NCBI GenBank assembly: GCA_037310415.1
Contig: CP147780.1
Location: 416,001 to 480,000, forward strand
DNA length: 64,000 nt
Reading direction: 5' to 3'
From: Candidatus Atabeyarchaeum deiterrae
GTDB taxonomy: Archaea; Asgardarchaeota; Atabeyarchaeia; Atabeyarchaeales; Atabeyarchaeaceae
Shown: positions 46,287 to 55,463 of the stretch, piece after piece
How positions within the stretch are numbered: the stretch's first letter is position 1
How the letters are laid out: each line of letters opens with the position of its first letter
Program-made: the position numbers and the translations under genes
The notes under the pieces: model-generated
Databases searched by the model: none
Seen by the model: only the letters and a program-made list of their open reading frames with translations
Told to the model about the DNA's origin: nothing

Positions 46287-46553
46287 ATCTCTGGCACTAC
46301 TCTTGATTTGCAGCAGAGAGACCTAATAACCGATGGATACTCTCTTGACTGCAGTGACGATTTACCGAGATGCAACTCGGGAGGAGCGGTGGAGAACACT
46401 TCTCTCGGGTGAAGGGCACAGTGGGGATCAGCATAGCGGACGTTCCCACAATGACTTGCCACGCATACATTCCACCAAACAGGAAAAGATCGTACAAGCT
46501 GAACAAAGGAGTTCTAACACTATCCGGACCGAGGTTACGAGTAAGGTCTGATA

Positions 46554-49658
<3,105 letters not shown>

Positions 49659-49826
49659 GCAGGCCTGAAAGCCCTCGGTCTGGGTGAATTTAGATCTCCC
49701 ATTTATTGTTCGGCGGGTGGAATTCTGTGCGTGGTGATCTCCTCATTTCTCTTGGACTAGTCAATCCCATGTTTGCCCCCTTGTTGATGGAAATTCTTAT
49801 TTGACATTCCTCGTAAATGTATTCTT

Positions 49827-50239
49827 GGAGTTAGGACGTGGGAGCGCGGCTGCCGGTGCCTTTCTTTCTCTTTGAGGAAGCTAGGTGCTGAGGAAGGTCT
49901 CCCCTCCACCAGACTTCGGTGCAGCGAAAGCTGCGAGGCGAGAGCCTCGCTCCAGGATCAGAAACGACACGTCCACACGTGAAATGACTATGATGCGGTT
50001 GAGGCGATGCTTACAGTGAGCGTCTCCGAGCAGGAGCCAGGGTAACCTAGCTCAATAACCCGCTGAGGATCCTTGTGGGAGCGGTGAAACGGCCTGCCAC
50101 CGAGGAGAAAGCCCAAATAGGCTGTGGATGATGCGTCTGGCTGAACCAGCGGGTAGGGTGAGTAGCTGGATGCCGCAAAGGGTGTTTCGGCGACGAAACA
50201 TCTGGAACAAAAGGGGGCCTACTACCCACACCTGACTCC
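49827..50239 (+). ncRNA. rnpB: RNase P RNA
   Basis: P1 GGAGTTAGG..GTGGG / CCCAC..CCTGACTCC; GAGGAAGGTCTCCC and AACAAAAGGGGGCCTAC P4 strands; TGAAACGGCC, GAGAAAGCCCAAATAGG. Confidence 0.9.
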
Positions 50240-54529: not shown

Positions 54530-54713
54530 GTCAATTCCACCGCCGAATAATGTCGACTTCAGGCACAGGAGATTGTTAACATAGCTTAATTGCTTGTGAG
54601 GTAGATATCAGTTTGGTCTCTCGGCAAATCTCTCCAGTAGATGAGTCTGAAACGAAATCACCTAAGGAAAGCCAGATTAGAAGTAATAAGATCGCTACCG
54701 GCTCGCATAAGGT

Positions 54714-54904
54714 TGGTAGCGGGGGATGGATTTGTCCTTCGTGGGAGTTGATCCCACGGATTTGAACCATCGATCTCAGGGTATCCCAGTGGGACATCTT
54801 ATGAGCCATCCGCAGGAGGATTTGGCTATCTCCTACTGCGGGATCTCCTGAGTGGGCCAACCTACCTCCTGATCCAGAAGTAAGGGTGCCTACCCTACCC
54901 CGCT
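54714..54904 (-). tRNA. Initiator tRNA-Met(CAT) with four BHB introns (54889-54852, 54835-54808, 54799-54783, 54761-54732)
   Basis: Spliced 78 nt AGCGGGG TA GGGTAGTCAGGAGATCCC G CAGGG CTCATAA CCCTG AGATC GATGG TTCAAAT CCATC CCCCGCT ACCA; A1:U72 and three G:C pairs in the anticodon stem. Confidence 0.93.
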
Positions 54905-55105
54905 ATTACGGGTGCGAATTATGTGATAGTTCTGAATGGTTACTCATATATTTTACTCTTTGGTTGCTGTCTCCTGTCAAAATAATCGTGTTCTCTACCT
55001 CTCAACCGGCGTCCAAGATTCATATTGCCAAAATCGGCTATGGCTTCCTTTTAGTCGAAAATAGCTGGCAGGGAATTGCAGAACTGGAAAATGATATCGT
55101 TGGAG

Positions 55106-55180
55106 TGGACCGGGTGGGATTTGAACCCACGACCTCCGGCTTGCAAAGCCGGCGCGGCTTCCAGCCTGCGCTACCGGCCC
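55106..55180 (-). tRNA. tRNA-Ala(TGC), intronless, CCA not encoded
   Basis: GGGCCGG/CCGGTCC acceptor, CCGGC-TTTGCAA-GCCGG, TTCAAAT T-loop. Confidence 0.94.
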
Positions 55181-55218
55181 ACCATAGGAGCCGTTCACTA
55201 GCGAAGATAAGGATTGAG

Positions 55219-55330
55219 GGCCGGGAGCGGGATTTGAACCCGCGTCAAGGGCTCCACAGGCCCCTAGGCTAACCACTCTTGAGACGCTACCCAGCTACTC
55301 ATCGATGGGGAGCGTTATCCCATCCCGGCC
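55219..55330 (-). tRNA. tRNA-His(GTG) with encoded G-1 and a 39-nt D-arm intron (55316-55278)
   Basis: GGGGC-CTGTGGA-GCCCT arm, C73; BHB TGGG/CTCA with AT^A and AG^A bulges, ACGCT/AGCGT inner stem. Confidence 0.9.
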
Positions 55331-55463
55331 ACTTGAACGATCTTTCATTGTAGACGAGGATTAAAGATTTTGTCACTTTTCTTATAAACTCTTTGACCTG
55401 CAACTGCGTAACGATGTCTGACCAAGGATCATCGCCAACGAAAAATAGGAGAGGCTAACCAAG

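Follow-up and report, generated by a model that had tools for sequence, protein, structure and literature searches.

An initiator tRNA-Met gene with four predicted introns in Atabeyarchaeia-2, and intron variation among its orthologues

We describe what is very probably the single, functional initiator tRNA-Met (iMet) gene of the archaeon Atabeyarchaeia-2, interrupted by four introns, a reading based on sequence comparison to which we give a probability of about 0.9. The window, that is, the whole stretch of 64,000 nt that was analyzed, corresponds to positions 416001-480000 of the complete genome, and the coordinates of neighbouring tRNAs match the published ones too. The gene occupies 191 nt of the minus strand, at 54714..54904 of the window (genome 470714-470904). 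It has a place in the published annotation, where row 39 of Supplementary Data 4 lists an iMet with a CAT anticodon at 470904-470714, a tRNAscan-SE 2.0.12 score of 56.5, and introns at 470835-470808, 470799-470783, and 470761-470732, three by tRNAscan-SE and three by R2DT (Valentin-Alvarado 2024, PMC11291895). The boundaries of these introns are identical, in that order, to those of our introns 2-4, so the gene had already been annotated and only the D-loop intron, at 15/16, is missing from the list. The preliminary description of this DNA had expected the gene to escape standard annotation, which proved right in part: tRNAscan-SE found the gene, but the 38-nt D-loop intron was left in the "mature" tRNA.

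Two elements are new relative to the 2024 table, namely the 38-nt intron at 15/16 of the Atabeyarchaeia-2 gene and a five-intron orthologue in Atabeyarchaeia-1, for which the published list holds 40 tRNAs with iMet absent (PMC11291895). The annotation of one essential gene would be corrected from three introns to four, and the initiator tRNA gene absent from the Atabeyarchaeia-1 table is now located.

Exons and identity of the initiator tRNA

Read from 54904 to 54714, the gene starts with AGCGGGG, ends with CCCCGCTACCA, and encodes both A73 and the CCA. All features that follow are on the minus strand and are given in window coordinates. Exon 1 (15 nt, 54890..54904) carries tRNA positions 1-15, comprising the acceptor 5´ strand, the D-stem 5´ strand, A14, and G15, and is invariant in the five orthologues compared below. 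Intron 1 (38 nt, 54852..54889), in the D-loop at 15/16 and with the central helix GGGT/GCCC, separates it from exon 2 (16 nt, 54836..54851), which holds the remaining D-loop, the D-stem 3´ strand, position 26, and positions 27-29. Intron 2 (28 nt, 54808..54835) lies in the anticodon stem at 29/30, with a CCGC/GCGG central helix and a 5-bp inner helix, and is followed by exon 3 (54800..54807), the 8-nt GGCTCATA that supplies positions 30-37, the CAU anticodon included. The canonical 37/38 site is occupied by intron 3 (17 nt, 54783..54799; CTCA/TGGG), after which exon 4 (21 nt, 54762..54782) covers positions 38-58, taking in the 3´ strand of the anticodon stem, the variable loop, the 5´ strand of the T-stem, and a portion of the T-loop. 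Intron 4 (30 nt, 54732..54761), in the T-loop at 58/59, combines a GTTC/GGAC central helix with a 7-bp inner hairpin, and exon 5 (18 nt, 54714..54731) provides positions 59-73 and then the encoded CCA. Together the five exons and four introns account for 191 nt, 113 of them intronic.

Removal of the four introns leaves 78 nt, which ARAGORN calls as tRNA-Met(CAT) and RNAfold folds into a cloverleaf of normal size (-30.5 kcal/mol) with the CAU anticodon in a 7-nt loop. An A1:U72 end pair and three consecutive G:C pairs of the anticodon stem, 29-31:39-41, are hallmarks of initiator tRNAs in archaea and eukaryotes. The spliced sequence carries A1:U72, G29-31:C39-41, a G15/C48 combination, and the encoded CCA, and both the end pair and the three stem pairs are present in all five orthologues compared below. 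These marks agree with the type given in the published table, and the initiator identity that had been proposed from the letters alone therefore stands.

Upstream of the gene, the box GAGTAAAATATATGAGTAACC (54938..54958, minus strand) is kept with a few substitutions in all five orthologues. In each of them a TATA-like core, AAAATATA, lies approximately 43-50 nt before the mature 5´ end and is followed by a conserved leader. The box and the core may together constitute the gene's own archaeal promoter.

Splice motifs and their relaxed geometry

All splice placements compatible with the identical product were scored for bulge-helix-bulge (BHB) geometry. In this geometry, 4 exon bases separated from the 5´ cut by 2 nt pair with 4 intron bases separated likewise from the 3´ cut, and the bulges are 3 nt long and are cut after the second base. 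The test picked the same four sites as the preliminary description (15/16, 29/30, 37/38, and 58/59), each with a fully paired central helix (4/4), and with one G-U pair in three of the four helices. Thus, the four BHB introns proposed at the outset are borne out by both the geometry and the 78-nt tRNA-Met product. For intron 4, which has eight product-equivalent placements in all (55/56 to 62/63), the seven others reach at most 2/4 central pairs and were rejected.

Motifs of this kind do occur by chance. In a null drawn from the genome, at least three of four central pairs were found at 15% of random sites, so relaxed BHB-like patterns are common, and one might ask if the cloverleaf and its four motifs are nothing but a coincidence in non-genic DNA. 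A full 4/4 helix, however, was found in only 1.9% of random site and length trials, and, allowing for the 1, 1, 2, and 8 placements that are equivalent, we estimate the probability of four such helices together at product-restoring sites at about 2e-6. Moreover, splicing gives an exact initiator tRNA, relatives have the locus conserved and in synteny, and the unspliced precursor folds better than all 200 shuffles (z = -3.9). We regard a chance pattern as excluded. The minimum free energy (MFE) fold of the whole precursor reproduces the BHB of intron 1 and pairs the middle of the precursor otherwise, so that it is no useful test of introns 2 and 3.

Outside the central helices the motifs are less regular. 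The contiguous h/h´ counts are 2/0 for intron 1, 5/1 for intron 2, 1/2 for intron 3, and 1/1 for intron 4, where the canonical classes hBHBh´, hBH, and HBh´ have one flanking helix or more with two or more contiguous pairs. Short or interrupted flanking helices at introns 1, 3, and 4 make these motifs relaxed and not strict hBHBh´. Introns 1 and 4 have good inner hairpins just past a mismatch; in intron 4 the 7-bp hairpin begins just beyond one C.A mismatch, and in the LC30 counterpart of this intron h is 8. Relaxed BHB motifs are cut by broad-specificity endonucleases (PMC4033280). The Atabeyarchaeia-2 genome encodes two EndA paralogues of 238 aa and 198 aa, each with the N-terminal and catalytic domains (PF02778 and PF01974), a complement consistent with a broad-specificity two-subunit enzyme, and a single RtcB match (E = 5e-175).

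Thermoproteales similarly have several non-canonical BHB introns in one tRNA gene, relaxed motifs, and two or more EndA genes (Sugahara 2008; PMC4033280, PMC8450103). Those organisms differ in being Crenarchaeota, with a stated maximum of three introns per tRNA gene, whereas the present gene is from an Asgard archaeon and has four. Three was also the maximum stated for archaeal tRNA genes in papers of 2014 and 2021 (PMC4033280, PMC8450103), and the preliminary description took a fourth intron to exceed it. That suggestion of a record has been overtaken. The 2024 tables already contain four-intron genes for Lys-TTT and Trp-CCA of Atabeyarchaeia-2, for Lys-TTT of Atabeyarchaeia-1, and for Arg-TCT, Ile2-CAT, and Leu-GAG of Freyarchaeia (PMC11291895), and a 2026 preprint reports up to five intervening sequences per tRNA gene in Asgard archaea (10.64898/2026.10.13.758758). 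Four-intron tRNAs were therefore documented before this work, and our data leave the known intron capacity of tRNA genes, four as tabulated in 2024 and five as reported in 2026, unchanged.

We can sketch how such a transcript might mature, with cleavage, ligation, and splicing order all predicted from the sequence. Transcription from the gene's own TATA-like promoter would give a precursor at least about 200 nt long, with a BHB fold available to each of the four insertions. EndA would cut both 3-nt bulges of each motif, eight bulges in total, leaving five exons for RtcB to ligate, and RNase P would take off the leader. In introns 1, 2, and 4 the helix recruits, respectively, the D-stem 5´ strand, positions 24-27, and positions 53-56, which in the mature tRNA belong to the D-stem, the upper end of the anticodon stem, and the T-arm. 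Since the same bases are occupied by the intron helices, the cloverleaf would presumably form only after splicing. Four metatranscriptome runs compared with window positions 54600-55400 yielded nothing on the iMet gene, a result that speaks neither for nor against splicing; the only match in that interval was a 33-nt piece from another organism, on tRNA-Ala. An index search of sequencing runs gave no RNA run with the locus, but with exons of 21 nt or less a mature tRNA would probably escape an index of 31-letter words.

The probable D-loop intron and variation among orthologues

A BLAST search of 40 related genomes, combined with pattern scans in two public collections, brought together five iMet orthologues, Atabeyarchaeia-2 included. 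Four introns are found in Atabeyarchaeia-2 and in LC30 (JAHPYV010000003.1), five in Atabeyarchaeia-1 (CP147779.1) and on JGI contig Ga0315277_10563394 (489-700), and three on JGI contig Ga0315309_1000917 (7365-7527), where introns 1-3 are kept and the T-arm is uninterrupted. The T-loop intron is thus polymorphic within the family. When cut at the BHB sites, four of the five genes give identical spliced products, and the fifth differs at one D-loop base, while the introns vary in sequence, length, and number. Across the alignment, pairing holds in 85.6% of the cells that make up the BHB and inner helices, versus 39-50% when the partners are slid by 1-3 columns, and six helix pairs have changed on both sides. 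With five related sequences and a structure derived from one of them, this covariation is modest evidence for the intron helices.

The intron at 15/16 deserves separate consideration, since the published model may be right in counting three introns (29/30, 37/38, and 58/59) and the 38-nt stretch would then be kept in the tRNA as an expansion of the D-loop. The agreement of tRNAscan-SE and R2DT curation on three speaks for such an expansion, as does the central helix itself, which is 4/4 only in Atabeyarchaeia-2; all four remaining orthologues have G.A at the outermost position and thus a helix of 3/4. On the other side, the Atabeyarchaeia-2 insert sits in a 4/4 BHB with 3-nt bulges, the pairing of its inner helix is kept through sequence change, and both its sequence and its length (38-41 nt) drift among the orthologues around fixed exons. 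In two other Asgard families, too, iMet has an intron at 15/16, with a GGGT/GCC(C, T, or G) helix, and other Asgard iMet genes are compact at 15/16, without an insert. ARAGORN calls the Atabeyarchaeia-2 sequence tRNA-Met only if intron 1 is removed along with the others; with just the three published introns removed, it mis-calls the sequence as another tRNA. A 38-nt insert between G15 and U16 would, in addition, disturb the contact between the D-loop and the T-loop. Retention of the insert in the mature tRNA is therefore improbable in our judgment, and we favor splicing at all four sites.

The omission of this intron from the 2024 table fits a wider pattern. According to the 2026 preprint, approximately 30% of insertions in Atabeyarchaeaceae, Freyrarchaeaceae, and Jordiarchaeaceae are missed by tRNAscan-SE, most of them in the D-arm and situated at BHB motifs (10.64898/2026.10.13.758758). 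The D-loop intron of the Atabeyarchaeia-2 iMet is a textbook case of the class that this motif-free Asgard census describes as missed, which likewise argues against an expanded D-loop. The census takes in only genes detected by tRNAscan-SE, and its main text, as distinct from its per-gene tables, makes no mention of the initiator tRNA. With our analysis, the recent claim of a systematic under-calling of D-arm introns in Asgard archaea gains a further, well-controlled example.

Heavier fragmentation of an initiator gene was found elsewhere in Asgard archaea. In a second genus, represented by four genomes, iMet has five BHB introns, at 15/16, 20a/21, 37/38, 45/46, and 71/72, with central helices that are all 3/4 or 4/4 and a last exon reduced to the 5-nt TACCA. 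Like the Atabeyarchaeia-2 gene it has introns at 15/16 and 37/38, with a similar GGGT/GCCN helix at 15/16, but 20a/21, 45/46, and 71/72 take the place of 29/30 and 58/59. The Atabeyarchaeia-2 iMet is, consequently, not the most fragmented initiator gene.

The Atabeyarchaeia-1 orthologue lies at CP147779.1 ~463769-463981 on the minus strand, approximately 160 nt downstream of tRNA-Ala(TGC), and contains five BHB introns of 41, 21, 17, 28, and 28 nt. Its T-loop intron is at 59/60 (TTCA/TGGG, h 7, h´ 5), and the T-loop intron has thus slid by one position between Atabeyarchaeia-2 (58/59) and the five-intron orthologues (59/60). The fifth intron, at 63/64, is 28 nt long and leaves a 4-nt micro-exon, TCCA, between itself and its neighbor. 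It is present also on Ga0315277, and lies 4 nt downstream of the T-loop intron in a repeated A|TCC exon context. Aligned without gaps, introns 4 and 5 are identical at 21 of 28 positions in Atabeyarchaeia-1 and at 23 of 28 on Ga0315277 (75-82%), and in Atabeyarchaeia-1 their stems differ at a matched pair, GTGGG...CCCAC versus GCGGG...CCCGC. A single intron of 54-60 nt in the Atabeyarchaeia-1 T-arm, in place of two, restores no T-stem and was rejected.

The central helix of the fifth intron, ACTC/GAGG, is 3/4 paired. Two of its bases are the final two of the fourth intron, and it falls to 2/4 once that intron has been removed. This dependence suggests that the downstream intron would be cut first. 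The iMet genes of Atabeyarchaeaceae may capture the gain of tRNA introns in progress, with the fifth intron arising as a local copy into a nearby look-alike site, a proposal to which we would give even odds. The route by which introns arrive is left open by the 2026 census (10.64898/2026.10.13.758758), and a polymorphism of three, four, or five introns around one near-invariant mature tRNA may help in the study of how they arise.

We also noted differences in the 3´ trailers. The trailer of the Atabeyarchaeia-1 gene repeats the 3´ end of the tRNA itself, as CCCCCGCTACCA and then TCCCCCCGCTAC, and a partial copy is present on Ga0315277. The Atabeyarchaeia-2 trailer (window 54680-54713, minus strand) contains GGTAGC, the complement of GCTACC, and could fold back on the 3´ strand of the acceptor stem.

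A probable single initiator gene and the limits of standard finders

The preliminary description had recognized a second iMet gene as a question bearing on this locus. Neither short-word BLAST with the mature sequence nor a search for the anticodon-arm pattern revealed one in the genome, a single contig estimated to be 97% complete. Matches longer than 13 nt to the mature sequence occur at the iMet locus only. Sites with AGCGGG...CCCGCT ends were considered and rejected, as they have neither the remaining iMet exons nor the G:C anticodon stem, and the same was true of a match to GGCTCATAACCC at genome position 674140. This isolated GGCTCATAACCC, which resembles a CAU anticodon loop, is in the interval 674040-674160, approximately 100 nt upstream of tRNA-Ser(GCT), where no tRNA has been published. 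Given that the published set is without tRNA-Ile2(CAT), it might belong to a missed, heavily interrupted gene.

These searches bear on the possibility that the locus is a decaying pseudogene and that initiation depends on another tRNA gene, elsewhere in the genome, disrupted beyond recognition. The modest tRNAscan-SE score of 56.5 bits would fit decay, and since many tRNAs of this genome escape standard finders, a hidden copy is conceivable. Decay is nevertheless hard to reconcile with exons that are identical in four of five orthologues, from two genera and two metagenomes, while the introns have diverged, and with the conservation of the promoter box. Likewise, the single-contig genome contains no other cluster of iMet exons and no other anticodon arm of the iMet type. 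We therefore consider a pseudogene very unlikely, more so than retention of the D-loop insert, and take the locus to be the functional initiator gene.

The ease with which such genes elude detection is evident at the locus itself: unspliced, it receives no call from ARAGORN, with or without introns allowed, nor from the Rfam tRNA model at E values up to 10. In the whole genome, ARAGORN with introns allowed reports 24 tRNAs, many of them mis-typed (the published Arg-TCG, for example, is called SeC), and the Rfam tRNA model reports 22, with 16 at or above the cut-off, compared with 43 in the published table. Asp, Cys, and Ile-GAT are among the tRNAs absent even from that table, and the set is thus not yet complete.

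Two other RNA genes in the window are longer than their models. The match to RNase P RNA (window 49834-50233) spans 400 nt against a model of 288 positions, and the 23S match (window 46549-49663) spans 3115 nt against 2987 positions. Both RNAs probably carry insertions.
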